64,000 nucleotides of DNA from Candidatus Hydrogenedentota bacterium (GTDB lineage: Bacteria > Hydrogenedentota > Hydrogenedentia > Hydrogenedentales > SLHB01), in NCBI GenBank assembly GCA_963668025.2, contig CAXXTH010000017.1, forward strand, positions 1,472,001-1,536,000, read 5' to 3'. The notes under the pieces were generated by a model, which ran no database searches, was not told the DNA's origin, and was given only the letters and a program-made list of their open reading frames with translations. The stretch's first letter is position 1, and every line of letters begins with the position of its first letter. Shown piece by piece: positions 7,077 to 54,450 of this stretch. Both the position numbers and the translations under genes were made by a program.

Positions 7077-7123
7077 CACTACGGCTGGGCTTATCCTGAA
7101 GGGATGGGCACAGGGAGAGGGAA

Positions 7124-8707
7124 ATGATGTCCCGCACGACACGACGGAGAATTTGGAAGCCTATGGGGCCGATGCAGCGTTTTGCAGCAGTGGTTGTGGG
7201 CTGCCTATTATCGCTTGGGGTATTTGCACAAGAGCAAACAGTCCGGCCTCAAGATTCAACGGCCAGGGAAAATGTCATCGCGCCGCGCGAGGAAGCGCCC
7301 GTAGCGAAAACGACACTCAATGCCGGAGATTTGGTGTTTGTGGACATCGCACGGCACCCGGAATTGTCCACCAGCACGCAGATCGATACGGGCGGAAGCA
7401 TTGTGCTGCCCCATGTGGGCCCGGTAAAAATCGGGGGCATGTCGGAGACGGAGGCGCAAGATGCCATCGCAACGTCGCTGCTGCGCATTTTGCGCCAGAA
7501 GCCGCAAGTGATGCTTTCCCGCAACGCCCCGGCGGTAACCGCCAATAATTTCCGCACTTCCGAGATGACGACCGAATTAATCCCGCTGCAGAACGCCAAT
7601 GCGGAAAATCTCGCCAATGCGCTCCAAGGCATGACCAGCGCGGGCGGCAATATCAGTTATGATCCCGATACGTATACGCTCATTATTACAGATACGCCGG
7701 AGACCGTGCGCAATATCATGAGTGTTGTCAATCGCCTTGACAATATGAAGAGCCTTGTCACGCAAGTGCGGATCGAGGCCAAGATTGCCGAAGTGAAAGT
7801 AAACGCCATGAAAGAACTGGGCGTTAAGTGGTTTGCTCAAGGCGATGAAGCCGGGGGCGGGTATTATCCCACGGGCGTGCAAGGCACCGGCTTGCAAAAT
7901 TTGCTCGGTACCGCGTCCGATGCGAACGCCAACGAGCAAGTCAATTTGGGCGGTGGCGGGACAGGCGGCGGCCGTTCATATGTCGAAGAAGGGCTGTTTG
8001 ACCGGCGCGTAGTGCTGCCGGTAAATGTAGGCCAGCCAGGCCAGTTTTTCTTTGGGCTTTTGAATTCGGATATCGATCTGGGCATATTGCTGAATGCGCT
8101 TGTGGCGAATGATGAAGCGGAAATCCTGGCGAATCCGAGTATTTTGGCGGTGAATCACACCAAGGCGCAAATCCGCAGCACCGAACGCTTTCCGTTCACC
8201 GAATATGGCGTGTCGGATGGGCGCGACACGTTCGGCACCAGTTTCCTCGATCTCGGGATCAAGCTGATGGTGACGCCCCATGTGCGCACCGATGATAAAG
8301 GCATTTATGTGAACCTCGAACTCGAACCCGAGGTGTCGTATCCTACGGGCAACGCCGAAGGCGTGCCCACCTATTCCGTGCGTAGTTCAAAAAACATCGC
8401 GAATGTGCGTGACAGTCAAACGCTTGTTATTGGGGGTATTTACCGCAACCAGCAGCGCAATGTGGACTCTGGTTTGCCTGGACTGCGCAAGGCTCCGATA
8501 ATCGGCCATCTGTTCTCTCATGTCGAAAAAGAGCAAAATCAGACGGAGTTGATGGTTTTCGTTACGCCGACGGTGCATGACAGCCCGGAGACGGTCACCT
8601 GGGATCGAATGTTGGATATACAAAGCGCAAGCAATGCGCCTAGCGCGAGCAGTGTGCTGAAACCGGTTCCCACTCGAGCCGTTTTACCCGAGACTCGCAA
8701 GGAGTAA
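7124..8707 (+). CDS. Poly_export (Wza/OPX) domain fused to a secretin (N-domain + secretin core)
   Basis: Signal peptide; LNAGDLVFVDI..HPELS..IDTGGSIVLPHVGPVKIGGMS (PES-like); Secretin_N ELIPLQNANA..LIITDT; QVRIEAKIAEV..ELGVKW; GIKLMVTPHV; TLVIGGI..LPGL..PIIGHLFS..TELMVFVTPTV. Confidence 0.85.
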   Translation: MMSRTTRRRIWKPMGPMQRFAAVVVGCLLSLGVFAQEQTVRPQDSTARENVIAPREEAPVAKTTLNAGDLVFVDIARHPELSTSTQIDTGGSIVLPHVGPVKIGGMSETEAQDAIATSLLRILRQKPQVMLSRNAPAVTANNFRTSEMTTELIPLQNANAENLANALQGMTSAGGNISYDPDTYTLIITDTPETVRNIMSVVNRLDNMKSLVTQVRIEAKIAEVKVNAMKELGVKWFAQGDEAGGGYYPTGVQGTGLQNLLGTASDANANEQVNLGGGGTGGGRSYVEEGLFDRRVVLPVNVGQPGQFFFGLLNSDIDLGILLNALVANDEAEILANPSILAVNHTKAQIRSTERFPFTEYGVSDGRDTFGTSFLDLGIKLMVTPHVRTDDKGIYVNLELEPEVSYPTGNAEGVPTYSVRSSKNIANVRDSQTLVIGGIYRNQQRNVDSGLPGLRKAPIIGHLFSHVEKEQNQTELMVFVTPTVHDSPETVTWDRMLDIQSASNAPSASSVLKPVPTRAVLPETRKE

Positions 8708-8715
8708 GTGCTTCG

Positions 8716-10986
8716 ATGGCCAATGATATGACAGGGCTGGAAAAAGCTGCCTCCCAGGGCCGCGAAAATCAATTGCGGTTTCTGGTTAATGTGGTGGCGC
8801 GCCATTGGAAGCTAATAGCCGCCTCGGTTCCCGTGGCGGTTCTGGGCTATTTCTGTTTTGTCCAAGGCTACGCGCTGTTTTTCCAGCCTCCAGCGCCTGA
8901 GGTGCAATGGCGCGCCCAGACCCAGTTGGTGGTCCAGCAAGCGGAGTGGGAAAAAGAGATCTTCCGCAGCCTGGCGGGCACGCCGCTGTTCCGGGGAACG
9001 CCCACGGCGCTGGCGGGGCGCATTAGCGCGCGCGATTTGGCCGCCGATGCGGTGCATGCCATGGTTCAGGACGATCTTCTGAATGGCGGGCTGATGGGCG
9101 GCATTTTTACAGAAGAAAGCGTCGAAGCAGCCATCCAGCCTATCTCTTCTGGGTTGGAAGTCGTGCCCGAGGATGAAACGGGCGTCATCGGCGTGCTTGG
9201 AGCCGCATCGGGCCGGGAAGAAGCCCGGCGCATTGTCGATTATGCCGGGCGCAGTTTCATCGAGCGGAATCAGCGTTTTCTTTCCAATGAAGAGCAAGAA
9301 GCGCTGGACTTCGTCCATACGCAATTAAAAGAAGTAGGCCAGCGCCTGGACCAAGCCGAGAGTGATGTCTGGCAGTTCAAAAAAGAGATGGGTTTCACGA
9401 CGGGCGAACAGTATGAAACCGATTTGTCAGCGCTCTACGATGAGCTGCGCATGAACGAAGCGTCGCGCTCGGGCCTTAATGATAAGCTGCAAGAGATTGC
9501 GAATGAATTGAAGTTAAATAATGAAAAACTCCCCGAGGCCTTGGGGCAAATCAACGATGCCGTCATTACCGGTCTTCTCAATCAACTGAACACGCAGCTT
9601 CAAGAGCAGTTCACGCTGAGCGTGACATATACCCCCGAGTTTGACGATCTGAAAAACCTGCAAGCTGATATCGAGGACACGCAACGCGCTATTCTCGAGG
9701 CGGTGCGCAAGCTGGACGGAGAAGCCGATAATGGCCAATTGGTGTGGGATCGCCGCCAGTTTCTGCATTCGCAATACCGGCAATGCCAGATAGACCTTAC
9801 TTCGCTAGAGATTCGTGCGTCTACAGTGGAAACGCGCCTCGATGATATGATGAAACAATGGCCCGTACTCAGCGAAAAGCGCAAGCAGTTCGAGAGCCTA
9901 CAGCGCGCCAGTGCGCAATTCCAGAAGCAATTTGATTTGCTTGTGGATAAGAAAACAGAACTCGAGGATGCCATCCGCCGCGGTGCGGCTCCCGTCAAGC
10001 GCGGAGAGTACGTCACTGATCTAGGGATGACCAAAGGCCGGGAGTCACAGCATGGCTGGCTGGATTATTTCATAGCCGCTGTCATCGGTTTGCTGGCTGG
10101 TTTAGCGATTTCCGTTGCTTGGGAATTGAATGATACATCGATTCGAAGTGTCGAGGATGTGACGGAATATATCGGCCTTGATGTGATCGGCATGATCCCG
10201 CGCATGCAATTTGGCCGCACCTTGCGGCGGCCACGCAATCGTGGCAATTATGTGGCCATCAAAGAGGAAAGTGAAGTTGACGCCTGTATTGTGACCCAGC
10301 ATGATCCGAAATCGCCCATTTCCGAGGCTTATAGGACGCTGCGGACCAATTTCCAGTTTGCCACCATCCAACAGAAACCGAAAACTATCCTGGTGACCAG
10401 CGCCGTGCCGGGCGAAGGCAAAACCACTACCGCCGTAAATATGGCCGTCACATTCGCGGATAGCGGATTTAAAGTTCTTCTGGTGGATACCGACTTGCGC
10501 CGCCCTCATGTGCATCATGTGCTCAAAATGCAGCGCGGGCCAGGCCTTGCCGATGTGCTCCGCCAGGGCCTTGATTATCATCCTCTCGTGCGGCAGACGC
10601 GCATCAAAAACCTCTGGTCTATATCGAGCGGCCATGTGCCGCCCAATCCATCAGAGTTGATAGGTTCGGAGCGGATGCGAAATGTTATGCAGAGCATGGC
10701 CAGCCATTTCGATTTGGTCATCTGTGATGCGCCTTCGGTGCTGGTCGTGACCGACCCCGTGCTTCTGGCCACCAATGTGGATGCGGTGGTAATCGTGGCT
10801 TCCGCCACCTACGCACGCCGTGAAACGGTCTTGCGCGCCAAACGCCTGATGGAAACGGCGAAAGCCCATATTGCGGGCGTTGTGTTGAACGGCATCGACG
10901 CCACCCGCCGCCATTATTATTACTACTATTATTATTACGATGAAAGCGCCTCTGGCCACCACCGGAAACGCTGGTTCAACAGTTAA
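8716..10986 (+). CDS. wzc: Polysaccharide co-polymerase / BY tyrosine kinase (Wzc-like)
   Basis: Two TM helices flanking a coiled coil; SEAYRTLRTN; Walker A GEGKTT; DTDLRRP; C-terminal YYYYYYYY cluster. Confidence 0.9.
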   Translation: MANDMTGLEKAASQGRENQLRFLVNVVARHWKLIAASVPVAVLGYFCFVQGYALFFQPPAPEVQWRAQTQLVVQQAEWEKEIFRSLAGTPLFRGTPTALAGRISARDLAADAVHAMVQDDLLNGGLMGGIFTEESVEAAIQPISSGLEVVPEDETGVIGVLGAASGREEARRIVDYAGRSFIERNQRFLSNEEQEALDFVHTQLKEVGQRLDQAESDVWQFKKEMGFTTGEQYETDLSALYDELRMNEASRSGLNDKLQEIANELKLNNEKLPEALGQINDAVITGLLNQLNTQLQEQFTLSVTYTPEFDDLKNLQADIEDTQRAILEAVRKLDGEADNGQLVWDRRQFLHSQYRQCQIDLTSLEIRASTVETRLDDMMKQWPVLSEKRKQFESLQRASAQFQKQFDLLVDKKTELEDAIRRGAAPVKRGEYVTDLGMTKGRESQHGWLDYFIAAVIGLLAGLAISVAWELNDTSIRSVEDVTEYIGLDVIGMIPRMQFGRTLRRPRNRGNYVAIKEESEVDACIVTQHDPKSPISEAYRTLRTNFQFATIQQKPKTILVTSAVPGEGKTTTAVNMAVTFADSGFKVLLVDTDLRRPHVHHVLKMQRGPGLADVLRQGLDYHPLVRQTRIKNLWSISSGHVPPNPSELIGSERMRNVMQSMASHFDLVICDAPSVLVVTDPVLLATNVDAVVIVASATYARRETVLRAKRLMETAKAHIAGVVLNGIDATRRHYYYYYYYYDESASGHHRKRWFNS

Positions 10987-11045
10987 GCCAAGCCGGGCGC
11001 TAGCATTTCGCTTCCCCCAAAATAGCTTTTCGGGAGCTGTCGGCG

Positions 11046-12578
11046 GTGTTTTTTAATACCAACAAAGAATACCAGATCGGCCGCGGTGAAGTCGCGGAAA
11101 GCCGGGTGGAAGCGCCGTTCTTTGTTGCGCTAATGCTGGTTTGCGGGCTGCTGCTCATCTGCGCCCATCTGTATTGGCGGAATCCAGAAGTAACGCTGGC
11201 TCTTAGTTTTACTATGACGGTATTTGCCATCACTGCGCTTCGTGTTAGTTTCGGCGTCTATGTGCTGGTGTTAGGCATGCTGCTTTCGCCGGAGATAACG
11301 GCAGGTGCAGTGGGCTCCAAAGACCACGCTCTAAACATGCGCTATAACGATGTCCTTATTCTGGCCATTTTCATGGGCGTATTCGTCCATGTGGCTTGGA
11401 AAGGGCGCATGCGTTTTTGGATTCCCAGTCCCATTAATTCAGGCATTCTCGTATATTTCGGCATATGTATTCTCTCAACCTTGCTCGCTTTACGGCGAGG
11501 CTTGCCCTATTTCGATGAGATAACCGCGTTTTTCGTTCTAGTAAAAATGGTCGAGTATTACTTGATATTTTTCCTTGTGGGCAACGCGGTATCGAGTAAA
11601 GCAACCATGCGAAGGCTGTTGATTCTCTTTTTCATGACGGCGCTCTTCGTGGCGATTTATGGAATCGGACAAGTAGGCAAAACAGACCGCGTGGGAACGC
11701 CTTTCGAGTCAGAAGGCGCCGAGCCTAATACGCTTGGAGGATATCTCATGCTTGTGATGATCCTATCGTTGTCTTTATACCGGTATGCGCCTAGCCGCTC
11801 AAAAAAGGCCTTATTCCTATTGCTTTTCGCTATTGTTTTTGCACCTTTTCTCTTCACGCTTTCACGGGCTTCCTATCTTGCTTTAGTGGCCGCCATGATA
11901 GCCATGGGCATAAAAAGCCGGTCCTATTTGGTGCTTTCGATTGTGGGTATTGGCTTGTTGATATCTCCTTTTGTAATGCCTTCCGCCGTACAAGACCGAG
12001 TCAATTATACTTTTCAAAAAGGCGCTGGTGAGGAAGTCACGGTCGCGGGAAAAGACACCGGGATACAAGTCGATAAATCCACGTATGAGCGTATTTATGT
12101 ATGGAAAAAAGTTGGATATAACCTCCGTTATTTGCCGTGGTATGGCGGCGGCGTTTCGTGGGACACGGTCATGGACAGCCAATATGCCCGTGTGCTCATT
12201 GAAACGGGCCTATTTGGATTTGCTGCCTTTCTATTCATGCAATTCCGCATTCTGCGGACAACGCACCAAACGTATAAGTGGGCGGACGACTGGGTAGGCC
12301 GAAGCCTGGGACTTGCCACATTCTCTTTCACGATTGGCCTTATTGTCCACAGTTTTGGAACCATCTCTTTCCTCATTGTACGGATCATGGAGCCCTATTG
12401 GTTCCTGGTGGCGATGGCGGTCGTGGTGCGGGATAGGGCGATTCGGGACTATGTGCGGTCTAAGATGCGCCAGCGGAGTGAGGCCCCAAAAACGGCGGCC
12501 CAGCCATCCCCCCTCCCGCAGCCGGTTTTCCAGCCGGCACCGGTGCTCAGTCTTCGCAACCCAGATTATGTGGAATAA
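11046..12578 (+). CDS. O-antigen ligase / Wzy-family polysaccharide polymerase
   Basis: Many TM segments; EPNTLGGYL, TLSRASY and DSQYARVLIETGLFG motifs. Confidence 0.8.
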   Translation: MFFNTNKEYQIGRGEVAESRVEAPFFVALMLVCGLLLICAHLYWRNPEVTLALSFTMTVFAITALRVSFGVYVLVLGMLLSPEITAGAVGSKDHALNMRYNDVLILAIFMGVFVHVAWKGRMRFWIPSPINSGILVYFGICILSTLLALRRGLPYFDEITAFFVLVKMVEYYLIFFLVGNAVSSKATMRRLLILFFMTALFVAIYGIGQVGKTDRVGTPFESEGAEPNTLGGYLMLVMILSLSLYRYAPSRSKKALFLLLFAIVFAPFLFTLSRASYLALVAAMIAMGIKSRSYLVLSIVGIGLLISPFVMPSAVQDRVNYTFQKGAGEEVTVAGKDTGIQVDKSTYERIYVWKKVGYNLRYLPWYGGGVSWDTVMDSQYARVLIETGLFGFAAFLFMQFRILRTTHQTYKWADDWVGRSLGLATFSFTIGLIVHSFGTISFLIVRIMEPYWFLVAMAVVVRDRAIRDYVRSKMRQRSEAPKTAAQPSPLPQPVFQPAPVLSLRNPDYVE

Positions 12579-12645: not shown

Positions 12646-12738
12646 TGGCGGAGAGAGAGGGGTTCGAACCCTCGGAACACCTTATGAGCGTTCACACGCT
12701 TTCCAAGCGTGCGCCTTCAACCACTCGGCCATCTCTCC
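12646..12738 (-). tRNA. tRNA-Ser (anticodon GGA)
   Basis: Reverse complement reads GGAGAGATGGCCGAGTGGTTGAAGGCGCACGCTTGGAAAGCGTG...GGTTCGAACCCCTCTCTCTCCGCCA; long variable arm; encoded CCA. Confidence 0.97.
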
Positions 12739-12833: not shown

Positions 12834-12946
12834 AGGACAAGAAAGCGGTAGCAAGCTACCGCATCCCATATGCGCTCTAAGTTCTTTTTATGTAACTATT
12901 TGGAGTGCGGAAGCGTGCTGCCGCTTTGGGTGCCGGATTTCGTTTG
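12834..12946. repeat. REPIN-like inverted doublet, copy 1 (copy 2 at 26185-26298)
   Basis: AAAGCGGTAGCAAGCTACCGCA...TGGAGTGCGG.AGC.TGCTGCCGCTTTGG is shared by both copies. Confidence 0.75.
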
Positions 12947-19891: not shown

Positions 19892-20302
19892 TCACATAGC
19901 ATTTTTAAGCAATATGGAGCGTATGGCCGCTCGAACCTCGCGCGCCATCTTCACGGCCTCCCAAGCTTCTTTGACATCAATTGGATCCCAAGCGCCCGGA
20001 TAACGGGCTTCCACGGAATACCGGTTCAATGGCTGCACCTTTTCCACAGTTAGCGAGACTTCACCGGTGCGTATGGCTAAGTTGAACAGTACAACAAGAT
20101 CGTGAGTCTTAGGAAAGTAAATGCCATAATGTACCAGAAAGGCTTTCAGGTATTTCTCAGCGCACTGCTGGCAATGGAAGCACACAGTGTCCGTGGGGCA
20201 ATCGTCCTCGAGCGTCAATACATATTCCGCATTTCGCAGGTCATGCTCTGCTTTTTCCATCCAGCGCCACACTTCGAGTTCGAGTTCAGGCGGCCCGTTC
20301 AT
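19892..20302 (-). CDS. HEPN-domain protein
   Basis: W..KAEHDL, FHCQQCAEKYLKA, KTHDL and RYPG motifs. Confidence 0.9.
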   Translation of the reverse strand: MNGPPELELEVWRWMEKAEHDLRNAEYVLTLEDDCPTDTVCFHCQQCAEKYLKAFLVHYGIYFPKTHDLVVLFNLAIRTGEVSLTVEKVQPLNRYSVEARYPGAWDPIDVKEAWEAVKMAREVRAAIRSILLKNAM

Positions 20303-20615
20303 AAATGATCTTGCCTTCTTGTGCAGCCACGCGGACGATCGTCCCGATCACATCCTTTTGGCGTTCAAACTGGTCGGGCGTTACGACGATAACATCGATC
20401 GGAATGGTGCGGTCAGACAAGGCAAGGTCAATCTCGTTTGCCTTGCTGCGCAGAGAACCTTCAACGGGCATGACAACTAGAATGTCGAAATCGCTATCGG
20501 GCGTGGGCGTACCCTTCACATACGAACCGAATAAGATAATGCGGTCGGGATGAAATCGCGACACGATTCGCTGCGCCATCTCATCAAGGAATTGCATGCG
20601 CTCTTGTTCCGTCAT
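20286..20615 (-). CDS. Minimal nucleotidyltransferase (MNT), partner of the HEPN protein
   Basis: ILFGS..G..DSDFDILVV; overlaps the HEPN start; RBS before 20615. Confidence 0.9.
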   Translation of the reverse strand: MTEQERMQFLDEMAQRIVSRFHPDRIILFGSYVKGTPTPDSDFDILVVMPVEGSLRSKANEIDLALSDRTIPIDVIVVTPDQFERQKDVIGTIVRVAAQEGKIIYERAA

Positions 20616-20912
20616 CTCATGTTCCTTTCGATTGGACGGTTCCATGTTATTTGGACATGCCACGCGGCTAAATGTCAACCTCGAATCGCCGCATAACTGG
20701 GATGTCGGAAAGCGTGTGCATACAAATGGCTCATATATTCACGACCATTCATTCCACAGCGCCGTCATCACCCATTTCACCTATTTGGTGAGATCCCGTG
20801 GCATGGGCGTCCCGGCCATGCAACGGTCCGCCATAATCACGTGGCTTCGCGATGGCAGTCCAGTATTTGCAGCGTGTATTGAAATAGCGCACCCAAGGTG
20901 GCAGAATGATAC

Positions 20913-22700
20913 CGAAAGGTTCTGCTTCCATACACCATGTGATATGCGAATGTGGCGCGAAAAGCATGAAAGGGGATGAACCATGAACGTACAAGTTTTC
21001 TCCTTGACCGTTGCTGTTTGCCTAAGCCTTTTGATTACTCCTCCGTGCGCGGGCTCAGGGCAGGTTTCCACCACTGTCCCAGATGCCGCTGTCATCGCCT
21101 CTAATGCGTTCGCGATGGATCTGTACGCCGCCTTGCGCAAGCAGGAAGGCAACTTGTTCTTCTCGCCCGCCAACATCGCCTGCACACTGGCCATGGCGGA
21201 AGCGGGCGCACGCGGCAAAACGGCCCAAGAGATCCGGGATGTGCTCCACATGCCCGATGACTCGTTGGCCATGCACAAGGCCTTCGGCGCATTGGGCAAA
21301 AGCGCGCCGGGCGGAATCCTTCTCTACTCCGCCAACGCGATATGGTCGCCCGAGCCCATCCAACTGCTCGAACCCTTCCAAACCATCATGGAACGGGCCT
21401 ATGGCGTCAACAGCGTCATGACGCCAAATCCCGGGGATTCAAGGGAATATCATATCCAGATCAATGAGTGGATCGCGAAAGAAACGAACAACCGGATCAC
21501 AGAAGCGATCCGGTTCGAGGATTTGCCCCCGGGAGGGCTTAGCCTATCGCTGGTGAGCGCTTCCTATATGAATGGGCAATGGCGCGCCCAGTTTCCACGA
21601 CAGCGAACAGAAACCGCGCCGTTCACTACGGCCAGTGGTGAAACAGTCGAAGTTCCCACGATGCATATGGATGATTTCCTTGAATATGGGGAGAAAGAAA
21701 ACTGCCAAGTGCTGGAAATGAGCTATCAAAATAGCGTAATGGCCATGATTCTCGTGCTACCCAAAGAGCCTGATGGCCTGCCCGCTTTAGAAAAAGAACT
21801 CACCCAAATCGAAGTGAACGCCTGGCTGCCCAAAATGCAGCCCGTTATGGCCATCGTCAGTTTGCCCCGGTTTCGTTTTACGTCCGATCTGCATCTCGGC
21901 AATGTGCTGGGAAAAATGGGCATGCCCACCGCTTTCAGCGACAAAGCGGACTTTAAAAATATGATGTCTATTGATGGATTGCAGTTAAAACTGGCCAAGC
22001 ATTGCTCGTGGGTGGATGTAAACGAAGAGGGTACGGAAGCCGCCTCCGCTACCGTTATGGGGATAGGCATGCCTGGAATGGTTGATGAGTCCGTCGACTT
22101 TATCGCCGACCATCCCTTCCTATTTTTTATCCAGGACAGAAAGAGCGGTTTGATTCACTATGTAGGGCGCGTTCTGGATCCATTGCAGAAATAAATGATA
22201 ACGAAAGGTTCTGCTTCCATACACCATGTGATATGCGAATGTGGCGCGAAAAGCATGAAAGGGGATGAACCATGAACGTACAAGTTTTCTCCTTGACCGT
22301 TGCTGTTTGCCTAAGCCTTTTGATTGCTCCTCCGTGCGCGGGCTCAGGGCAGATTTCCACCACTGTCCCAGATGCCGCTGTCATCGCCTCCAATGCGTTC
22401 GCGATGGATCTGTACGCCGCCTTGCGCAAGCAGGAAGGCAACCTGTTCTTCTCGCCCGCCAACATCGCCTGCACACTGGCCATGGCGGAAGCGGGCGCAC
22501 GCGGCCAGACCGCCCAAGAGATCCGGGACGTGCTCCACATGCGCAAAGGCTCGCTGGCCATGCACAAGGCCTTCGGCGCATTGGGCAAAAGCGCGCCGGG
22601 TGGAGTCCTTCTCTATTCCGCCAACTCGATATGGGCGCCCAAGCCCATCCAGCTTCTCGAACCCTTTCAAACCATCATGGAACGGGCGTATGGCATCAGC
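20913..22700 (+). repeat. ~500-bp near-identical direct repeat covering the upstream region and 5' third of serpins 1 and 2 (about 20913-21410 vs 22202-22700)
   Basis: CGAAAGGTTCTGCTTCCATACACCATGTGATATGCGAATGTGG...ATGAACGTACAAG is repeated at an offset of 1289. Confidence 0.9.
20983..22194 (+). CDS. Secreted serpin 1
   Basis: NLFFSP; hinge EEGTEAASAT; FIADHPFLF signature; signal peptide. Confidence 0.95.
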   Translation: MNVQVFSLTVAVCLSLLITPPCAGSGQVSTTVPDAAVIASNAFAMDLYAALRKQEGNLFFSPANIACTLAMAEAGARGKTAQEIRDVLHMPDDSLAMHKAFGALGKSAPGGILLYSANAIWSPEPIQLLEPFQTIMERAYGVNSVMTPNPGDSREYHIQINEWIAKETNNRITEAIRFEDLPPGGLSLSLVSASYMNGQWRAQFPRQRTETAPFTTASGETVEVPTMHMDDFLEYGEKENCQVLEMSYQNSVMAMILVLPKEPDGLPALEKELTQIEVNAWLPKMQPVMAIVSLPRFRFTSDLHLGNVLGKMGMPTAFSDKADFKNMMSIDGLQLKLAKHCSWVDVNEEGTEAASATVMGIGMPGMVDESVDFIADHPFLFFIQDRKSGLIHYVGRVLDPLQK

Positions 22701-23480
22701 AGCATCATGATGCCTAATCCAAACGATTCGCGAGATATTTATGGCCAAATCAATGCATGGATAGCGCAACAAACGAACAACCGGATTGAATCCACGATTC
22801 TTCGTAGCGACATTCCTAGCGTTCCTCTAAATATGTTTCTCGTGAGCGCTTCTTATATGAAAGGAACATGGCACACTCCGTTTCCCCGCGAGCGCACCCA
22901 ACCAGGCGCTTTCACCATGGCCAGCGGGAATATAATCCAAGTACCCACCATGCATCTAGATTGTCGGCTTGGGTATGCTAAAAAAGACGGCTGCCAGATT
23001 CTTAGTTTGCCTTACAGTAAAAGTACATTATCTATGATAATCGTACTCCCAAATGACCCGGACGGGCTTCCCGCCTTGGAAAAAGAGATCTCGCAAAGTG
23101 ATATAAAAAAATGGATGCCCTGGCTTGATACCGCTAAAGCAAAGGTAAGCCTGCCACGGTTTTGTTTGGCGTCAAATTTTGAACTTAAAAAAACGCTGAG
23201 CGATATGGGCATGCCTCTGGCTTTTTGTGCTTCAGCGGATTTTGGAAACATTACCGCTGATTGCCCATGGTGGATCATGCTTGCAAAGCACTGCGCCTGG
23301 GTGGACGTAAACGAGGAGGGCACGGAAGCCGCCTCAGCAACTGTTTTGGGTTATGGAATGGGTCCGGTGCCGGAGGAGGTCGATTTCATCGCTGATCACC
23401 CCTTTCTGCTTCTCATCCGTGACCGTGACACGGGCCTGATCCATTATATCGGGCGCGTTCTGGATCCTACTCAGAATTAG
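22272..23480 (+). CDS. Secreted serpin 2
   Basis: Serpin motifs; RCL EEGTEAASATVLGYGMGP. Confidence 0.95.
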   Translation: MNVQVFSLTVAVCLSLLIAPPCAGSGQISTTVPDAAVIASNAFAMDLYAALRKQEGNLFFSPANIACTLAMAEAGARGQTAQEIRDVLHMRKGSLAMHKAFGALGKSAPGGVLLYSANSIWAPKPIQLLEPFQTIMERAYGISSIMMPNPNDSRDIYGQINAWIAQQTNNRIESTILRSDIPSVPLNMFLVSASYMKGTWHTPFPRERTQPGAFTMASGNIIQVPTMHLDCRLGYAKKDGCQILSLPYSKSTLSMIIVLPNDPDGLPALEKEISQSDIKKWMPWLDTAKAKVSLPRFCLASNFELKKTLSDMGMPLAFCASADFGNITADCPWWIMLAKHCAWVDVNEEGTEAASATVLGYGMGPVPEEVDFIADHPFLLLIRDRDTGLIHYIGRVLDPTQN

Positions 23481-23511
23481 GCAGTACAACGTTTTATAGG
23501 AGGAACCAACG

Positions 23512-24723
23512 ATGTGGAAAACAGGACTTGTTGTGGGAGTAGCGATGTGCTCAGTGGCGATGGCCACGACTATGGAGGATCAGATTGAAAAGGCCAAACC
23601 CGCCGCCGAGGCGTCCAATGCCTTCGCGGGTGATTTGTATGGCGCATTACGCACACAAGAGGGCAATCTTTTCTTCTCGCCCGCGAGCGTCTCGATTGGC
23701 TTGGCCATGGGCGAAGCAGGCGCGCGCGGCGACACTGAGGCGCAGATGGCCAAGACGCTCCACTTGCCGCCGAACGACCCCGCGATTCACGAAGCCTTTG
23801 GCGCGCTCGTCTGGTTACTGACGCAGCCCGGAAGCGACTGCGGACTACGAGCCGTGAATTCCATGTGGGCGCAACGGGACTATCCTTTCTGCGATTCGTA
23901 TATGCACATCGTGCGGGATATATACGGCGCCCAAGCGCATAAGGCCGACTTCATCCAGGCGGCTGACTCAGCGTGCGAAATAATTAATGCCTGGACCGCC
24001 ACGCAAACCAATTTTCGCATATGCGATCTGATCCCGCCAGGGCTTCTCGATTCGAGAACCCGAATGGTGCTCGTGAATGCGATGTATTTCAAAGCCCGAT
24101 GGACATTTAAGTTCCTGGAAAAGAACACGAAAGACGCCCCCTTCCACCTCACGTCCGAACAGACGGTGCAAGCGCCCATGATGCACCAACGAGGCATGTA
24201 CCGGTATGGCGAGAATGAGACGATGCAGTTCCTCGAAAAGACATACGTGAGCGGAAGCATGGCCATGATGATACTCTTGCCTCGGGCGGTGGACGGTTTG
24301 CCCGCCATCGAGCGGCAATTCAGCGCAAAGGCCTTGCAGGACTGGCTGTCCCAGTCGCAGGACGAGGATGCGGAGGTAGCGATTCCCCGTTTTCGCATGG
24401 AATCGTCCTTCTCCTTAAAAGACACGCTCAGCGCCTTGGGCATGCCGCTGGCCTTCAGCGGCGGGGCGGCGGATTTCACGGGTATGACCGACAAGGAGAA
24501 GGCGTTGTATCTGTCATTCGTGCTCCATAGGGCGTTTGTCGACGTGAACGAAGAAGGCACGGAAGCCACTGCGGCCACGGGTTTTGGCTATATGGGCGGA
24601 GGCGAACTCACAGAGGGTCCGCCTAAACAGTTCAACGCCGATCATCCGTTCCTGTTCGTCATCCGCGAAACCTATACGGGGACGATTCTCTTCGTAGGAA
24701 GGGTGATGAATCCGGCGCAATGA
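23512..24723 (+). CDS. Secreted serpin 3
   Basis: Serpin motifs; RCL EEGTEATAATGFGYMGGG. Confidence 0.95.
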   Translation: MWKTGLVVGVAMCSVAMATTMEDQIEKAKPAAEASNAFAGDLYGALRTQEGNLFFSPASVSIGLAMGEAGARGDTEAQMAKTLHLPPNDPAIHEAFGALVWLLTQPGSDCGLRAVNSMWAQRDYPFCDSYMHIVRDIYGAQAHKADFIQAADSACEIINAWTATQTNFRICDLIPPGLLDSRTRMVLVNAMYFKARWTFKFLEKNTKDAPFHLTSEQTVQAPMMHQRGMYRYGENETMQFLEKTYVSGSMAMMILLPRAVDGLPAIERQFSAKALQDWLSQSQDEDAEVAIPRFRMESSFSLKDTLSALGMPLAFSGGAADFTGMTDKEKALYLSFVLHRAFVDVNEEGTEATAATGFGYMGGGELTEGPPKQFNADHPFLFVIRETYTGTILFVGRVMNPAQ

Positions 24724-24936
24724 TGGCGGCGGCGCTCGCCGGGGAAGAGCACGGCGGAAAAAGCAATGTACTATTACTATGCCATTCCCGCGAAAGCGGG
24801 AATGACGGTGGGGTGAGTTATGCGCAAGTGTCAACGACGATGCCGTGGAACCGTTTCCGGATGCGGGACGTCGTTGGGCGCGTTGAGAAGCCTTTTGAGA
24901 ACCAGAACGTGTTAGTATGATGAGGAGGAGTCGGCC

Positions 24937-26163
24937 ATGCGGAATAGGTGGATTTTCATCGGAGTGGCCATTTTGTTCGCCGTGATGCCCGGTTTCTCTA
25001 CGGCGGAAGCGAATACCAGGGAACCTGCTGTCGCAGCCCCCGCCGTGGCGGCGTCCAATGCGTTCGCAGGCGACTTATATGGCGCGCTGCGTGCGCAGGA
25101 GGGCAATCTATTCCTTTCGCCCGCGAGCATCTCCATTGGCTTGGCCATGGGCGAAGCCGGCGCGCGCGGCGAAACCGAAGCGGAGATGGCAAGAACGCTC
25201 CATCTGCCGCCGAATACGCCCGCGATACACGATGCCTTTGGCGCACTCGTGCGGCTGCTGAAGCAGCGTGAACTCAACAGCGAACTGCAAACCATGAATA
25301 CGTTATGGTCGCAAAAAGGTTTTGTCTTTTTCGATACGTACATGCGCGTCGTGAAGGATCTGTATTCGGCCCAGGCATTTGAGGCCGACTTCATCGGCTC
25401 CGCAAATTCGGCACGCAGACTCATTAATAACTGGACCGCCGAGCAGACCAACGACCGCATACGCAACTTGCTCCCGGCAGGGCTCCTCGATTCCTACACC
25501 CGTATGGTGTTGGTGAATACGATCTATTTCAAAGCCAGGTGGACAACGGAGTTTACGAAAGCTAACACGGAGGACGCCCCTTTCCATCTCACGCCCGACC
25601 AAACCGTGCAAATACCGATGATGCACCAAAAAGGCACGTACCGGTATGGCGAGAACGAAACGATGCAACTCCTTGAAAAAACGTACGCGGGCGGATGCAT
25701 CGCCATGACAATTCTTTTGCCGCGCGCGGTTGACGGCTTGCCCGCCCTCGAGCGGCAATTCAGCGCGGAAGCCTTGCAAGACTGGCTGTCACAGTCGAGT
25801 GAGTCGAATGCAGAAATGGCGCTCCCCTGTTTCCGCATAGAATCGTCTTTTTCCCTGAGCGACACGCTTATTGCCTTGGGCATGCCGCTTGCCTTCAGTA
25901 CGAAGGCGGATTTCTCTGGAATATCGGACGACGAGAGGGGACTCTATTTATCAGCGGTGGTCCATAAGGCCTATATTGAAGTAGACGAAGAAGGCACGGA
26001 AGCCGCCTCAGCCACGGGCGGTGTTTACGCATGTGCTATTTCCGCACCCAAAATGGATCCACCAAAGGTGTTCAATGCCGATCATCCATTCCTATTTGTT
26101 ATTCGCGAAACCAGGACAGGGGCTATAATCTTTCTTGGAAGAGTGATGAATCCTGCGAAGTAA
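24937..26163 (+). CDS. Secreted serpin 4
   Basis: Serpin motifs; RCL EEGTEAASATGGVYACAIS. Confidence 0.95.
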   Translation: MRNRWIFIGVAILFAVMPGFSTAEANTREPAVAAPAVAASNAFAGDLYGALRAQEGNLFLSPASISIGLAMGEAGARGETEAEMARTLHLPPNTPAIHDAFGALVRLLKQRELNSELQTMNTLWSQKGFVFFDTYMRVVKDLYSAQAFEADFIGSANSARRLINNWTAEQTNDRIRNLLPAGLLDSYTRMVLVNTIYFKARWTTEFTKANTEDAPFHLTPDQTVQIPMMHQKGTYRYGENETMQLLEKTYAGGCIAMTILLPRAVDGLPALERQFSAEALQDWLSQSSESNAEMALPCFRIESSFSLSDTLIALGMPLAFSTKADFSGISDDERGLYLSAVVHKAYIEVDEEGTEAASATGGVYACAISAPKMDPPKVFNADHPFLFVIRETRTGAIIFLGRVMNPAK

Positions 26164-26184
26164 TGGCGTCGGAATGCGCGAAAG

Positions 26185-26298
26185 AGGACAAGAAAGCGGT
26201 AGCAAGCTACCGCACTCCATACATGCTCTAAGTATTTCTTATGAAAGTATTTGGAGTGCGGCAGCTTGCTGCCGCTTTGGGCGTGCGGATTTCATTTG
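26185..26298. repeat. REPIN-like inverted doublet, copy 2
   Basis: Matches 12834-12946. Confidence 0.75.
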
Positions 26299-26513
26299 GA
26301 TGCGCTCTTGCGATTCCATAGCGATATCCGACTCGCCGGGTAAAGGCACGACGAAAGAAGCAATGTACTACCATGGCGCCGTTCCCTTTCGCGGTGAAGG
26401 CGTTTGGGTGAGTATTGCGAAAATGTCAACGAAGCGAGTATGGAAGCCGTTTTCCGTGGGTGGGACGCCATTAGGCGCTCAGAGCGTTTTAATACGATTA
26501 GGAGGAGCCAAAC

Positions 26514-27737
26514 ATGCGGAATACTTGGATACTCAGTGGAATGGCGTTGTTGTTTGCCGCGATACCTGTTCGTTCAATGGCGGAGGAAATCACCATGCAG
26601 CCCACCACTACCGTAGCCCCCGCCGTGGCGGCGTCCAACGCTTTTACGGGCGATCTGTATGGCGCGCTGCGCGCACAGGAGGGCAATCTATTTCTTTCGC
26701 CCGCAAGCATCTCGATCTCCTTAGCCATGGTCGAGGCGGGGGCGCGCGGCGGTACGGAGGCGGAGATGGTTAAAACGCTTCATTTGCCGCCCAATACGCC
26801 CGCGATACATGAGTCCTTTGGCGCGCTGGTGCGGCGCTTGAAGGATGACGCCAGCGGCTGTGAACTGCGCACGGCGAACGCCTTATGGGCGCAACAGGGG
26901 TATCCATTTCTCGATTCGTACAGGCGCGTGGTGCAGGATATGTATAACGCCCAAGCATCGGAGGCCGATTTCGCACGCGCTGCCGAATCGGTGCGCAAGA
27001 TCATCAATGACTGGACCGCCGGGCAGACCAACGCCCGCATACGCGACTTGATCCCATCGGGGCTTCTGAATGCGAATACGCGCTTGGTGCTGGTGAACGC
27101 CATTTATTTCAAAGGGCTGTGGGAAAGCCCGTTCAAGCCTGATCTCTCGGAAGATGCGCCGTTCCAGCTCGAACCGGAGCAAACCGTGCAAGTGCGCATG
27201 ATGCGCCAAAAGGGCAATTTCAAATACGGCGAGACCGATACGATGCAACTCCTCGAAATGCCCTATGTGGGCGGACGCATCGCCATGGCGATTCTCTTGC
27301 CACGCGCCGTGGATGGGCTCCCGGCGCTCGAACAGCAGTTCAACTCGACCGCCCTCCAGGATTGGCTATCTCGGGCGCGCAAGGTGGAAACGGCCGTGTC
27401 GATTCCCAAGTTCCGCATGGAATCGTCCTTTTCGCTAAACGACACCCTTATCGCCTTGGGCATGCCGCTGGCTTTTAGCATGAAGGCCGATTTTTCGGGC
27501 ATGGCGGACGATGACAAGGCGCTATTTTTGTCGGCGGTGGTCCACAAGGCATTTGTCGAGGTGAACGAGGAAGGCACGGAAGCCGCCGCGGCCACGGGCG
27601 CCGCCGTAGCGGTCAAGTCATCCGTGCCCCGGCCCCCAAAAATATTCAATGCGGATCACCCTTTCCTTTTTATTATGCGCGACACCGATACGGGTGCGAT
27701 CCTTTTCTTGGGGAGGGTGATGAATCCGGCGAAATGA
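26514..27737 (+). CDS. Secreted serpin 5
   Basis: Serpin motifs; RCL EEGTEAAAATGAAVAVKSS. Confidence 0.95.
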   Translation: MRNTWILSGMALLFAAIPVRSMAEEITMQPTTTVAPAVAASNAFTGDLYGALRAQEGNLFLSPASISISLAMVEAGARGGTEAEMVKTLHLPPNTPAIHESFGALVRRLKDDASGCELRTANALWAQQGYPFLDSYRRVVQDMYNAQASEADFARAAESVRKIINDWTAGQTNARIRDLIPSGLLNANTRLVLVNAIYFKGLWESPFKPDLSEDAPFQLEPEQTVQVRMMRQKGNFKYGETDTMQLLEMPYVGGRIAMAILLPRAVDGLPALEQQFNSTALQDWLSRARKVETAVSIPKFRMESSFSLNDTLIALGMPLAFSMKADFSGMADDDKALFLSAVVHKAFVEVNEEGTEAAAATGAAVAVKSSVPRPPKIFNADHPFLFIMRDTDTGAILFLGRVMNPAK

Positions 27738-28183
27738 TGACGATGGATGCTTTTTCTGGGCAAATTTTACGGAAGATACACCACCAAGGCACAAAGACAC
27801 GAGGAGGCTCGCAAGAATTATCTGGCGTATGTAGCCATTATATATGTAAAATACGTAACTGTCTAGCCGGTTCTGCAATTTGCACAAAGAAACCCGAATC
27901 ACCGTGATTCCCGAAAACACGTGAATCCAGATAATATAGATAAAATCGAATCACAGACCCTTAATTCCCGCATTCACGAGAACGAAGTTCCTACTTTAGA
28001 GCATGATGGCTTCAAATCTTGACACCTGCTAGACAGTTACTAAAATATTTACTAATCTAAGACAGAGCAGGCAAGTAAAGGCTTAGGGCTCCTTGTGTCT
28101 TAGTGTCTTAGTGGTGAAAAACGTTTTTTTGGTTGCGGCCATGCCGCGCAAAGCATTTCGTTGTCCCTTTAATAATGATATCT

Positions 28184-29905
28184 CTACATCCGGTCTACAA
28201 TTTCGATCCCGAGCAGCCCGAGGGCGTTGCGCAAGGTTTGGCGCGTGGCGGCGCAAAGCTGGGCGCGGGAATCGCGCAATGCCGGTGTAGCGGCGTCGAG
28301 GACGGGGCATTCGTGGTAGAACGTGGTGAACGCACGGGCCGCATCCAACACGTACTGGGCAATGGGCGCGCAGGAGCGTTGCGATAAGGCCGTTTGTACT
28401 ACGGTGGGAAATTCCGACAGCTTCAAGCACAACAGCCACTCGGCGTCGGTTTCCATGGTGAAGCTCCCGGACACCGGCGGCACATCCATCCCGTACTTCC
28501 GCAGGATCGAGGCGATGCGCGCGCAGGAATACTGCACATACGGCCCCGTGTCGCCCGAGAAGGACAGGCTCGATTCCCAGTCAAACACGACGTTTTTATT
28601 CGGATTCACCCGCAGAATCGCGAATCGCACCGCCGCCACGGCCACTTTTATGGCGATGGACCTGCGCTCTTCGGGGGAAAGGTCGCGGCATTGCTCCTCG
28701 ACCTTCTCGGCAGAACGCCGCGCCGCTTCATCTAGGAAATCCGAGAGCAGCACGACCTTGCCTTGGCGGGTGGACATTTTGCCGTCTTTGAGCACGATAT
28801 AGGCGTAATACACCGCCTCGGGATACTGGTGCCCCGCCGCTTCGAGGATCATGGACTGCTGCTGGGCGTAGAGCTTGTGGTCTTCGCCGAGAATGATCAG
28901 GTTCAGGTCCGCGCATTGCTCCATCTTGTGGATGGTATACGCGAGATCGCGGTAGCCGTACATCGAGCTGCCGTTGGCCCGCATGAGGACGAAATAACGC
29001 CCTTCTTCCTGCGTATGGCCTAACGCCGAAAGGTCCACCACGAGGCGGCCTTCTTCATCCGTGAAGACCGCGTTCCGCGCCTGCAACGCGGCCACAATGG
29101 CATCCAGGCGTGGGTCGCGCACGAAATTGGATTCGCGGTCGAACACATCGTAATTAATGCCCAAGCGCGCCAGCACCAGGATTTGGCCGTTCAAGCACAG
29201 GTTGGTGACGGCATGGAATTTGGCCCGTGTCTCGGGGTCGCCTTCTTCCATCCGCGCGAGCAGGGAATAGCCCTTGGCGGCGAAAGATTCGTCATCCTCC
29301 GCACGCTGGTTGGCCTGGACATAGGCATCGAGCACTTCCTCGAAACGGATATCCGGCTCAGCGCCTTCCGCCAAAACGCCCACTTTTTCTTCAATAGCCA
29401 GCACCAGCAGGCCGATTTGGCGGCCCATGTCGTTGACGTAATAATGAACGCTGACATCGTATCCTTCGAAGCGGAGCAGCCGGACGATGCTGTCGCCGAT
29501 CATGGCGTTGCGCGCCCGGCCCACATGGGGGCTTGCATTCGGATTGATGCTCGTGTGCTCGACCAGCGCCGTCTTGCCCGCACCCGTCGCGCCGGAACCA
29601 AAATATGCGCCCATATCAAAAACGTGATCAGCCAGGCGGCGGCCAAAAAAGGCGCGGTCGATATGGAAATTCACATACGGCCCCGCCAATGCCGTTGATT
29701 TAACTTCAGGGCCAAAAGACGTCTCGTCCGCGATGCGTTTCGCCATATCAGGCGGAGCTATGCCCAGGCGTTTCGCAGGCAGGAAAGCGCGCAATGCCAT
29801 ATCGCCCATACCCGGCTTGGGAGCGGGCGAGAACACTAGGTCCGCAGGCTCCAAACTTGGAAAAGCCTTCAAAATGGCATCTGCGATAGGCGCGAACAAT
29901 TCCAA
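28184..29905 (-). CDS. argS: Arginine--tRNA ligase
   Basis: EHTSINPN..PHVGRARNA (HIGH-like), KMSTRQG, GDTGPYVQYSCAR and a DALR-type C-terminus. Confidence 0.95.
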   Translation of the reverse strand: MELFAPIADAILKAFPSLEPADLVFSPAPKPGMGDMALRAFLPAKRLGIAPPDMAKRIADETSFGPEVKSTALAGPYVNFHIDRAFFGRRLADHVFDMGAYFGSGATGAGKTALVEHTSINPNASPHVGRARNAMIGDSIVRLLRFEGYDVSVHYYVNDMGRQIGLLVLAIEEKVGVLAEGAEPDIRFEEVLDAYVQANQRAEDDESFAAKGYSLLARMEEGDPETRAKFHAVTNLCLNGQILVLARLGINYDVFDRESNFVRDPRLDAIVAALQARNAVFTDEEGRLVVDLSALGHTQEEGRYFVLMRANGSSMYGYRDLAYTIHKMEQCADLNLIILGEDHKLYAQQQSMILEAAGHQYPEAVYYAYIVLKDGKMSTRQGKVVLLSDFLDEAARRSAEKVEEQCRDLSPEERRSIAIKVAVAAVRFAILRVNPNKNVVFDWESSLSFSGDTGPYVQYSCARIASILRKYGMDVPPVSGSFTMETDAEWLLCLKLSEFPTVVQTALSQRSCAPIAQYVLDAARAFTTFYHECPVLDAATPALRDSRAQLCAATRQTLRNALGLLGIEIVDRM

Positions 29906-30329
29906 TGTACAGTCTCCTTTTCAACTATAGAACGCAGGGTGGGGCTTGCCCCACCGCTCAAAGCCATACTCCGCCTGGCGGGATAGCAATCATTGATCCA
30001 CAAATGATGCATATGGCATAACGCGGCATGGCGGCAACTAAAGATCCGGATTTTGAGACCACTAAACACACTAACTACACTAAAATCTGTAGGGTGGGGC
30101 TTGCCCCACCGATCAAGGGATACGCCTATACAGTCTCGAACATAATCATTTTATATGCAATGGTTTCTCAGGAAAATTTTCGCAAGAAAACAACATTTCG
30201 GCAAATAGTAGCATGGATGATAAAATACCGCAGAGGCAGGTTGCACCATTATAACCACTGATTTATACGGTGAATCGGACCTTGCCCTAAATAATCATAG
30301 CGAAGATCGCACCACTATCTTTCAAAAAG

Positions 30330-30517
30330 GTAACACTTTAGTCGACTGAAGTAGCATCTGATATTTGGCAGCCTTGTTTATTCCTTTTCGCCGGTATTGA
30401 TACATTATTTTGCATCTGACGACCGACGATGGCGTCGGTCCCACACTTTTTAATGTAATCAAATTGTGGGACCGGCGCCCTCGCCGGTCCTTCTTCACCA
30501 CTTGGCTAAAGTGTTAC
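30330..30517. mobile_element. 188-bp MITE with IS66-type ends, copy 1
   Basis: Starts GTAACACTTTAGTCGACTGAAG and ends GGCTAAAGTGTTAC, matching the IS66 at 52910-54437; no ORF. Confidence 0.85.
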
Positions 30518-30741
30518 TCAACATCTTGTTTTCTTGCGATGATTTTCCGTGTAAGCAAGTCAGAGTACATTAACTTGATATAGCATACGATTTTCAGGGT
30601 ATTTGGGCTGGCTCCTCCTTTGACTGGTGGGGCAAGCCCCACCCTACGTCAAGATTGTAAAAATCGATTATTCGTGATCATCCGTGCCTATTCGTGGTTC
30701 AAGATCCGGATCTTTGGCCGCGACGATGCCGTGGAAGCAAC

Positions 30742-32311: not shown

Positions 32312-32485
32312 GTCCGCCACCGCCTTTCCTGGATTTGAACCTATACACTCGATGAGGCGCTCAAGTCGCAAATTCTACCAAAGATATATCAAAATGGCCA
32401 ACAAACCTAGAATTCATGTATGTGGCCGTAGCATGGGCGTCCCGCCCATGCCACAAATCGCCACATGCCATTGCTATAGCCGTTT

Positions 32486-36506: not shown

Positions 36507-36669
36507 TGGGTGCATCATATAGCGCAAGTGGTATTTACGCGTGGATTCTCACGGCGTTCCTGTGAGAAACACGTTCAAGCGTTTCAGAATAGCTCCCTCC
36601 GTAGCATGGGCGGGACGCCCATGCTACGAGGAAAATCCGTTTGCTTCGATTCATCCAGTCTTGAACGCG

Positions 36670-39086: not shown

Positions 39087-39387
39087 TCCCAGGATAGGAG
39101 CGAAACCGGCATTGCTCGAAGCCGCTAAAAAAGGATTTGAGCATGGGAAAATGTGCGATATATATTCTTTTCTGTTACTCGTGGCATGGGCGTCCCGCCC
39201 ATACCATGAGAGTTGTTCTTCAATCAAATGGTTAGAACAATGACGACGCCATAGTGGCAATCATTGTTTTGATTACTCGGTATTTTCATGCACGGGCAAG
39301 AATAACATCCCCATTATCCGATGAATAGGAATTGCGCTGTTTCCATTTTGTTTGTATGCTCCTGCCATTGGTTTTAAGGAGGCGGGG

Positions 39388-43890: not shown

Positions 43891-44068
43891 ATGAATCGCC
43901 GGTTAAGCGGAGATAGGTATGCACTTCTCGTGGTATGGCCGTCCCGGCCAGGCGCATGGGCGGGACGCCCATGCTACGGGATCTCACCAAATAGATGATG
44001 GGGATTATGACGGCGCTAAGGAACTTCCTAGGAATTCAGGATATTCTTGTATATATAAAACTCAAACC

Positions 44069-54437: not shown

Positions 54438-54450
54438 TAATTTTGTTTAA

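Follow-up and report, generated by a model that had tools for sequence, protein, structure and literature searches.

The stretch analysed here, a window of 64,000 nucleotides (64 kb) on contig CAXXTH010000017.1 of a Candidatus Hydrogenedentota bacterium, carries five intact serpin genes, S1 to S5, which follow each other on the plus strand (20983-27737; all positions are those of the window) between a nucleotidyltransferase/HEPN gene pair and argS. All five span positions 2-370 of the 370 in the Pfam Serpin profile PF00079 (E 3e-90 to 6e-120; 304-401 bits with a curated cut-off of 27). This bears out an earlier inspection of the letters alone by a model (the sequence-only reading), which had announced five full-length serpins in two subfamilies: protein identity is 69% for S1/S2 and 62-67% within S3/S4/S5, and falls to 37-41% between the two groups. 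The array is apparently lineage-specific and larger than any among the 79 loci with which we compared it. We consider it probable that a hub-type serpin was expanded locally by duplication and recombination, and that its products are exported suicide inhibitors, with S5 directed at trypsin-like proteases.

Each gene is preceded by a purine-rich stretch resembling a ribosome-binding site (RBS). A tblastn search revealed no further serpin-like sequence in the window, and no NCBIfam model covers S1-S5. The four intergenic gaps (77, 31, 213 and 350 nt in order) hold no terminator-like site on the plus strand, and therefore at least S1-S3 are probably co-transcribed; promoter and terminator scans of the window stayed at chance level (7 promoter matches, 5.8 expected).

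Hinges, baits and predicted targets

For the comparison of reactive-centre loops we used 298 homologues, of which two and then four had no usable bait, leaving 296 and 294 rows. In all five genes the hinge residues P17-P12 (EEGTEA) and P9-P8 (AT) are identical to the consensus sequence of the 294 homologues, and every change in the hinges is to a small residue, i.e. Ser at P10 in S1, S2 and S4 and Thr at P11 in S3. The hinges match the inhibitory ExGTEAAAA-type motif quoted in passages of PMC8233489. From P17 to the DHPF motif the loops measure 27-31 residues, compared to 25-33 in the homologues where measurable. The hinges, the baits and both P1 registers were found exactly as the sequence-only reading gave them: a count of 17 residues places P, G, G, A and K at P1 of S1-S5, and a count of 16 places M, M, G, C and V there.

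What is unusual is the composition of the baits (Table 1), which are rich in Gly, Tyr and Met in S1-S4. Between P7 and P2', S1 and S2 have three Gly and S3 has five, whereas three Gly occur in 5 of 296 homologues and more than three in none of them. A Tyr or Phe is present in the baits of S2, S3 and S4 but in only 9 of 296 homologues, and three array genes have Tyr at P4, which is found once in 294. No basic residue occurs in P7-P2' of S1-S4. Since the baits of S1-S3 are alike in being rich in Gly and Met, the array may comprise about three specificity classes rather than five.

The best-founded target prediction concerns S5. Its Lys-Ser (Lys368-Ser369) aligns without gaps with the Arg-Ser of chloropin from Chlorobium limicola (PDB 8GXV), which is a proven site, so that in both proteins a basic P1 precedes a Ser at an identical register; chloropin is also the top match among solved structures (E 4e-59 for S1, 3e-81 for S5). 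Because chloropin inhibits thrombin and KLK7 through its P1 Arg and forms complexes with trypsin, as described in parts of PMC10090351, we predict with considerable confidence that S5 inhibits trypsin-like proteases. The same source describes a single protein with P1 Arg that is sped up by heparin or DNA, whereas S1-S5 are acidic proteins (pI 4.9-6.0), of which S1-S4 lack a basic residue in the bait.

The cleavage register is fixed by alignment for S5 only. Judging from protease preferences, elastase- or subtilisin-like enzymes are the most likely targets of S4 (Cys-Ala-Ile), and S2 (Met-Gly in the 16-residue register) and S3 (Tyr-Met-Gly-Gly), which present Tyr, Met and Gly between P4 and P1, would most probably act on subtilisin/chymotrypsin-like or papain-like proteases through a shortened register. 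S1 (Met-Pro-Gly) is the least predictable and would need a prolyl-specific enzyme or a shifted register. The canonical P1 count must be regarded as tentative for S1-S4, since serpin cases with a 16-residue register are noted in passages of PMC3534287 and miropin of T. forsythia uses sites outside P1-P1', as mentioned in PMC8201313 alongside the inhibition of subtilisins by C. thermocellum PinA. A bait swap can yield cross-class inhibition, as parts of PMC7463295 report.

All five proteins start with a hydrophobic stretch (Kyte-Doolittle 11-mer 2.25-3.14, a hydropathy heuristic) and none has a lipobox, so that Sec-dependent export is probable, with the periplasm as likely a destination as the medium. 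As the window contains a secretin gene, which speaks for an outer membrane, Sec export would lead to the periplasm first. Structure models were made for S1 and S3 (two of the five). In both cases AlphaFold predicts a serpin fold: the S1 model (predicted local distance difference test score, pLDDT, 87.9) has residues 350-362 as an added strand and finds its best match in cleaved miropin (target template modelling score 0.90), and the S3 model (pLDDT 90.5) has a flexible exposed loop at 354-364.

Segment exchange, origin and rarity of the array

The 5' parts of S1 and S2 have been homogenised recently. Of the 78 bases upstream of the two genes 77 are common to both, and of the four-fold degenerate sites 4 of 71 differ before alignment column 144 but 45 of 73 beyond it (permutation p 0.0005, the lowest value that 2000 shuffles can give). 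Over the first 40 codons the synonymous difference is 0.00, and past column 160 it has climbed to about 0.7. Selection at the protein level cannot produce such a pattern at synonymous sites, which argues for homogenisation, and as the divergence forms a gradient, this has probably occurred more than once. The three S3/S4/S5 pairs show no similar break (p 0.12-0.74). The longest exact repeat in the array, 124 nt, is shared by S1 and S2; all others have at most 24 nt.

Independent support for recombination between S1-like and S2-like genes comes from P0403, a fragment of 148 amino acids (aa) that was the sole addition from a profile search of 1.84 billion representative sequences. It matches the end of S2 with 84% identity (23 of its 148 positions differ), and its informative sites are S2-like in the body (37:2) and S1-like in the tail (6:1; Fisher p 2e-5). 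In the bait, 10 of 11 residues are those of S2, a pattern more in keeping with a constrained, specific bait than with rapid change. The hinge is altered at P13 (Lys; Glu in 294 of 294 homologues) and P9 (Val). P0403 may represent the orthologue from a related strain or else an additional paralogue in decay.

Close relatives of the five genes were otherwise lacking. In a set of 5.8 billion proteins, where the 8000 best word-sharing candidates per query were scored (lengths of about 220-710 aa), the best identity off this contig was 43% for S1 and 54% for S5; among 147 further representatives S1/S2 reached 41-42%. Each of S1-S5 forms a single-member cluster. A FastTree phylogeny (152 rows) places the five genes on one side of a branch with a Shimodaira-Hasegawa-like support of 92, and they also join in an IQ-TREE phylogeny (32 rows) from which the N-terminal block and the bait had been removed (support 66/89). 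Besides, a Glu at S5 position 74 is present in all five array genes and in 1 of 218 homologues. Taken together, local expansion from a single ancestor is favoured, though not proven. As the sequence-only reading had noticed, the regions upstream of S4 and S5 are homologous; they align over about 200 nt, and the one of S5 was duplicated along with its gene.

The scaffolds are maintained by purifying selection. The ratio of nonsynonymous to synonymous substitution rates (dN/dS, Nei-Gojobori) is 0.21-0.24 for the scaffolds of the S3/S4/S5 pairs (0.20/0.82, 0.23/1.07 and 0.20/0.96); in S1/S2 the part that escaped conversion gives 0.24 (0.37/1.53). In consequence, with dN/dS of about 0.2 in the pairs tested, we conclude that the genes are kept as proteins.

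Copy number in relatives had been proposed as a check. Our scan of GTDB genomes returned 79 loci from the best 80 of at least 603 matching stretches and is thus a sample of consensus-like serpins rather than a census. Within it a second adjacent serpin occurred at four of 79 loci (L018, L035, L044 and L078; Table 1) and three serpins at none; among the 38 loci that extend over 20 kb or more, one has two genes. Three of the four pairs are truncated by a contig end within the second gene, and assembly breaks may thus conceal longer arrays. Among plasmids, 18 of 72,556 records match a serpin, one of them in two places. The literature, chiefly open papers, yielded no study devoted to an array of bacterial serpins or to serpins of Hydrogenedentes. 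As a side observation, 11 of the 147 representatives exceed 600 aa and have two or more hinge motifs (two-domain serpins, among proteins P0351-P0485), and P0413 carries seven repeated hinge-bait cassettes, which we take to resemble mis-joined alternative bait exons of an animal gene.

In the scheme that we propose, one hub-type bacterial serpin would have expanded locally in a Ca. Hydrogenedentes lineage by tandem duplications that carried gene and leader together. An old split would have given rise to the S1/S2 and the S3/S4/S5 branches, and recombination between neighbours would still trade segments, as in the 5' block of S1/S2 and the tail swap in the outside relative of S2. The proteins would cross the membrane via Sec and serve as suicide substrates: a protease would cut the exposed loop, the small-residue hinge would zip into sheet A, and the protease would be dragged along and trapped as acyl-enzyme, in line with the serpin mechanism of cleavage, loop insertion and acyl-enzyme trapping outlined in parts of PMC10090351. 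S5, with its Lys-Ser, would trap trypsin-like proteases. The most likely job of the array would be to shield the envelope and exported proteins from proteases of the cell itself and of neighbouring microbes.

This scheme is comparable to known systems in several respects. With the prokaryotic hub serpins of Spence et al. 2021 (passages of PMC8233489) the array shares the full domain, the ExGTEAAAA-type hinge, an N-terminal transport peptide (present in most prokaryotic serpins according to these passages) and an environmental host; it differs in its five tandem copies and in the distance of S1/S2 from the consensus. In the main text of that paper the terms "duplication" and "multiple serpins" never occur. 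More than one serpin per genome is described in parts of PMC8201313 for C. thermocellum (PinA/PinB) and E. siraeum (siropin 1/2), though with two rather than five copies; for these serpins and miropin, protection from own and foreign proteases is proposed there, and miropin provides a precedent for a flexible register. Among eukaryotes, the rodent SERPINA1/A3 clusters likewise arose by tandem duplication and birth-death evolution, as stated in parts of bioRxiv 10.1101/2025.01.07.631777; their different activities were measured, whereas the array is known from sequence alone. Rice serpins differ at P2-P1' in each paralogue, as passages of PMC3534287 show, and so does the array. These eukaryotic clusters are an analogy only and do not indicate shared descent. 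It is a tentative thought that this bacterium, independently of eukaryotes, assembled a serpin cluster of their kind. New specificities would arise in it through duplication and through exchange of segments between neighbours, with leader and N-terminus made uniform and the tail, perhaps also the bait, exchanged; the S1/S2 shutter, rewired by the reciprocal Ser/Asn swap, would still work, and Gly/Met/Tyr baits would serve against cysteine or subtilisin-type proteases. If true, nature would have provided an experiment on how the shutter governs serpin metastability; arrays of this kind may also go under-counted because contigs from short reads break within them.

What serpins do in free-living bacteria has been called enigmatic in the main phylogenetic study of the family (passages of PMC8233489). 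Five paralogues of one cell, with S5 as a canonical control, permit a direct test of whether bacteria diversify serpin targets like animals and plants do, and S1/S2 as natural variants at core positions invariant in 218 relatives bear on how the metastable state is held. The scope is set by a single uncultured genome, a well-known protein family and the lack of close relatives.

The altered core of S1/S2 and competing explanations

Several observations weigh against the reading of the array as a locally expanded set of inhibitors. Inhibitory activity is predicted for S1-S5 from sequence and models, and the inserted loop in the AlphaFold model of S1 is no evidence of activity. One or two Lys/Arg stand among the first six residues of S3-S5 but none in S1/S2; of the earlier claim that the proteins are secreted with signal peptides, the hydrophobic leader thus holds for all five and a basic n-region for S3-S5 only. 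Pro is rare at the cut, occurring at P1 (as in S1) in 5 and at P1' (as in S2) in 1 of 294 homologues. No protease gene was recognised among 46 open reading frames (ORFs) of the window scanned against Pfam, of which 9 had no match at all. A common origin appears in 64% of the bootstrap trees, the S1/S2 branch being long. Baits as divergent as those of S3-S5 are found in 3858 of 47266 control triplets of homologues (8.2%). Finally, the cores of S1 and S2 are heavily altered: of 113 columns conserved to at least 90% in 218 homologues, 29 are changed in S1 and 28 in S2, compared to 16 in S3, 15 in S4, 7 in S5 and at most 12 in any homologue. The 218 homologues were chosen for high score, which favours consensus-like sequences. 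For this alignment 230 proteins had been fetched and 223 were aligned, a snake protein (P0122) and six proteins of at least 470 aa having been dropped. Neither this altered core nor the recent 5' homogenisation of S1/S2 had been seen by the sequence-only reading.

The changes affect the shutter and breach, for which we use antitrypsin numbering mapped by motif. In both S1 and S2, Ser56 is replaced by Asn (0 of 218 homologues) and, reciprocally, Asn186 by Ser (1 of 218), Phe190 by Met and Lys335 by Cys (0 of 218 each), and residues of the helix E/F motif are changed; S1 is additionally altered at 191. These positions are 94-100% conserved in the homologues, and S3-S5 keep the equivalents of Ser53, Ser56, Asn186, Phe190, Lys191, Trp194 and His334. 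A rough motif scan of the 147 further representatives flagged Asn56 twice and Ser186 nine times, but never both in one protein. With the core so heavily altered, the inhibitory status of S1/S2 is uncertain and their function possibly changed. The alternative that faces us most directly is that S1/S2 are no longer ordinary inhibitors, being latency-prone, cofactor-regulated or non-inhibitory (ligand carrier or chaperone), while S3-S5 remain inhibitors. The substitutions above, a branch length of 1.35-1.63 against a median end branch of 0.33-0.34 and the Pro at or beside the canonical cut speak for it. Yet non-inhibitory serpins usually lose the hinge, which is intact in both proteins, the equivalents of Ser53, Trp194 and His334 are retained, and the reciprocal Ser/Asn swap may conserve the hydrogen-bond network of the shutter or else change stability. 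On balance we regard this alternative as somewhat unlikely. Seven Cys follow residue 30 in S2 and four in S3, compared to 0-3 in homologues (n=294), and disulfides would be possible in an exported protein.

According to a second alternative, the copies are kept by dosage or birth-death drift, and a loosely constrained loop diverges without selection for different targets. Among 360 windows of nine residues along S3-S5, those of the bait vary most (7-19% identity, scaffold 68%), three windows at 287-289 tying with the bait at 19%, and the baits share 6 of 27 identities against a control mean of 11.1. However, the control triplets, drawn from homologues at 60-75% scaffold identity and not independent of each other, include the 8.2% mentioned above, and all homologue pairs of this range have few identical bait residues (mean 3.5-4.1 of 9). 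The likeness of the S1-S3 baits also suits drift, as do Gly-rich loops, which could mean lost constraint, and the two hinge changes of P0403, as a decaying copy might show. Within the bait dN/dS is inestimable, because over 11 codons the synonymous sites are saturated (proportions of differing sites 0.53-0.71 nonsynonymous, 0.69-1.06 synonymous), so that the proposed comparison of bait and scaffold yields a value for the scaffold only. Against drift stand the scaffold dN/dS of about 0.2 in all pairs tested, the absence of any broken gene among the five, and two signs of constrained baits: the P4 Tyr of three array genes and the preservation of the S2 bait in P0403. We hold drift or dosage alone to be unlikely, although adaptive bait diversification is unproven. 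The sequence-only reading had spoken of a diversified inhibitor arsenal evolving like eukaryotic serpin clusters. A lineage-specific tandem cluster of paralogues, rare in our sample, with inhibitory-type hinges and different baits, agrees with our data; selection for bait diversity does not emerge from them, as bait divergence lies within the control range, and the common origin that the comparison implies has the supports of 92 and 66/89 given above.

Less likely still is that S1/S2 came from another donor by horizontal transfer to a place beside resident S3-S5, their N-terminal likeness being due to later conversion. The G+C content at third codon positions (GC3, codons 141-340) is 0.59 in S1 and 0.47 in S2 compared to 0.68-0.73 in S3-S5, neither the leaders nor the putative signal peptides of S1/S2 are related to their counterparts in S3-S5, and the bootstrap value for one origin is 66. 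The lower GC3 of the 3' parts together with the long branch would be compatible with a separate donor. On the other hand, no donor-like relative turned up in the searches described above (full-length identity outside at most 43%, and 41-42% among the 147 representatives), the tree without the N-terminal block still unites the five genes, and the HEPN, nucleotidyltransferase and radical SAM neighbours have similarly low GC3 values (0.54-0.59), whereas argS, fumC and rlmB have 0.73-0.75.

A programmed cassette system that shuffles baits or genes behind one promoter, similar to antigenic variation, is very improbable. The near-identical block does start just past the -10 box of a promoter-like site (20879-20907), and there are mosaics in S1/S2 and P0403, but the array consists of five complete genes, each having an RBS of its own, neither a recombinase gene nor a recombination site was recognised next to it, promoter matches are at chance level, the S3/S4/S5 pairs show no break, and ordinary homologous recombination suffices. 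An assembly artefact, which the 124-nt exact repeat might have promoted by letting an assembler swap the downstream parts of S1 and S2, can practically be dismissed, since the copies are 37-69% identical, the other exact repeats are short, the array lies within one contig of 1,610,229 bases, and a mis-join could reorder genes but never invent five divergent ones.

The surrounding window

The features of the array, its flanks and the tandem pairs found elsewhere are compiled in Table 1.

Table 1. Positions of the serpin genes, their baits (slash, canonical cut), homogenised blocks, spacers, repeats and flanking genes in the window, and of tandem serpin pairs in other genomes (positions within the respective locus).
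Feature	Position	Strand	Remarks
S1 serpin	20983-22194	+	403 aa; PF00079 E 8e-91
S2 serpin	22272-23480	+	402 aa; PF00079 E 3e-90
S3 serpin	23512-24723	+	403 aa; PF00079 E 5e-112
S4 serpin	24937-26163	+	408 aa; PF00079 E 3e-113
S5 serpin	26514-27737	+	407 aa; most canonical
S1 bait	P1 Pro 22072-22074		VMGIGMP/GM; hinge P17 starts 22024; P1 by canonical count
S2 bait			VLGYGMG/PV
S3 bait			GFGYMGG/GE; five Gly in P7-P2'
S4 bait			GGVYACA/IS
S5 bait	P1 Lys 27615-27617		GAAVAVK/SS
Homogenised 5' block, S1 copy	20905-21400	+	78-nt leader with RBS and about codons 1-139
Homogenised 5' block, S2 copy	22194-22690	+	begins at last base of S1 stop codon
S3-S4 spacer	24724-24936	+	homologous to S5 upstream region; hairpin 24784-24803
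S5 upstream region	26300-26513	+	homologous to S4 upstream region
Palindromic intergenic repeat, S4-S5 spacer	26185-26281		27-nt arms; copy 12834-12930 88% identical; insertion like repetitive extragenic palindromic (REP) or miniature inverted-repeat transposable (MITE) elements
Short repeat copies	20796-20821, 32426-32451, 36599-36624, 39180-39202, 43954-43994, 48700-48763		
HEPN gene, left flank	19892-20302	-	Pfam HEPN
Nucleotidyltransferase, left flank	20286-20678	-	Pfam NTP_transf_2
argS, right flank	28184-29905	-	Pfam
Tandem pair, L044	9929-12685		Terracidiphilus bin; scaffold 76% identical, different baits
Tandem pair, L018	2-3358		WOR-3 bin; cut by contig end
Tandem pair, L035	2-1427		Alcaligenaceae bin; cut by contig end
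Tandem pair, L078	3790-5570		Gemmataceae bin; cut by contig end

The nucleotidyltransferase/HEPN pair on the left resembles a type VII toxin-antitoxin module, although its score with the MntA model (33.5 bits) is under the cut-off of 60; further left lie an rlmB-like gene and fumC. On the right, ArgS has its closest other proteins at 73% identity, and the top-scoring matches with an organism name belong to Ca. Hydrogenedentes, so that the host probably represents a Hydrogenedentota lineage without close sequenced kin. None of the 79 related loci shares argS, rlmB, fumC, HEPN or four further flanking genes; a similar nucleotidyltransferase is present at one locus, and two loci have a distant TatD. 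The spacer between S5 and argS (27738-28183) is AT-rich (41% GC) and contains two sigma-70-like sites, each matching 11 of 12 positions, on opposite strands, though both flanking genes end there.

Intergenic repeats are frequent in the window. The short repeats of Table 1 are members of a REP-like family of which at least seven copies occur, in both orientations; one copy lies just upstream of S1. Further intergenic repeats (29936-30647, 42484-42657, 52909-52932 and 61887-61979) comprise a palindromic motif of 20-28 nt and a 174-nt element. The two copies of the latter (about 30330-30503 and 42484-42657) are 91% identical, and its ends match sequences at 52909 and 54424 that flank an IS66 transposase gene, so that it is possibly a miniature insertion sequence derivative. 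Two transposase genes, of the IS66 family and the DDE_Tnp_1 type, occupy 52918-56089 on the minus strand. Beside them, also on the minus strand, a 37% GC island (56198-60189) holds four ORFs of 256, 396, 255 and 375 aa without Pfam or PADLOC matches, whose alternating lengths suggest a duplicated gene pair.

At the other end of the window, 4201-12578 on the plus strand encodes an AAA ATPase, a polysaccharide-export/secretin fusion, a ParA-like chain-length kinase domain and an O-antigen ligase-like gene, a probable exopolysaccharide export locus. The single Rfam match in the whole window is a tRNA at 12649-12738.

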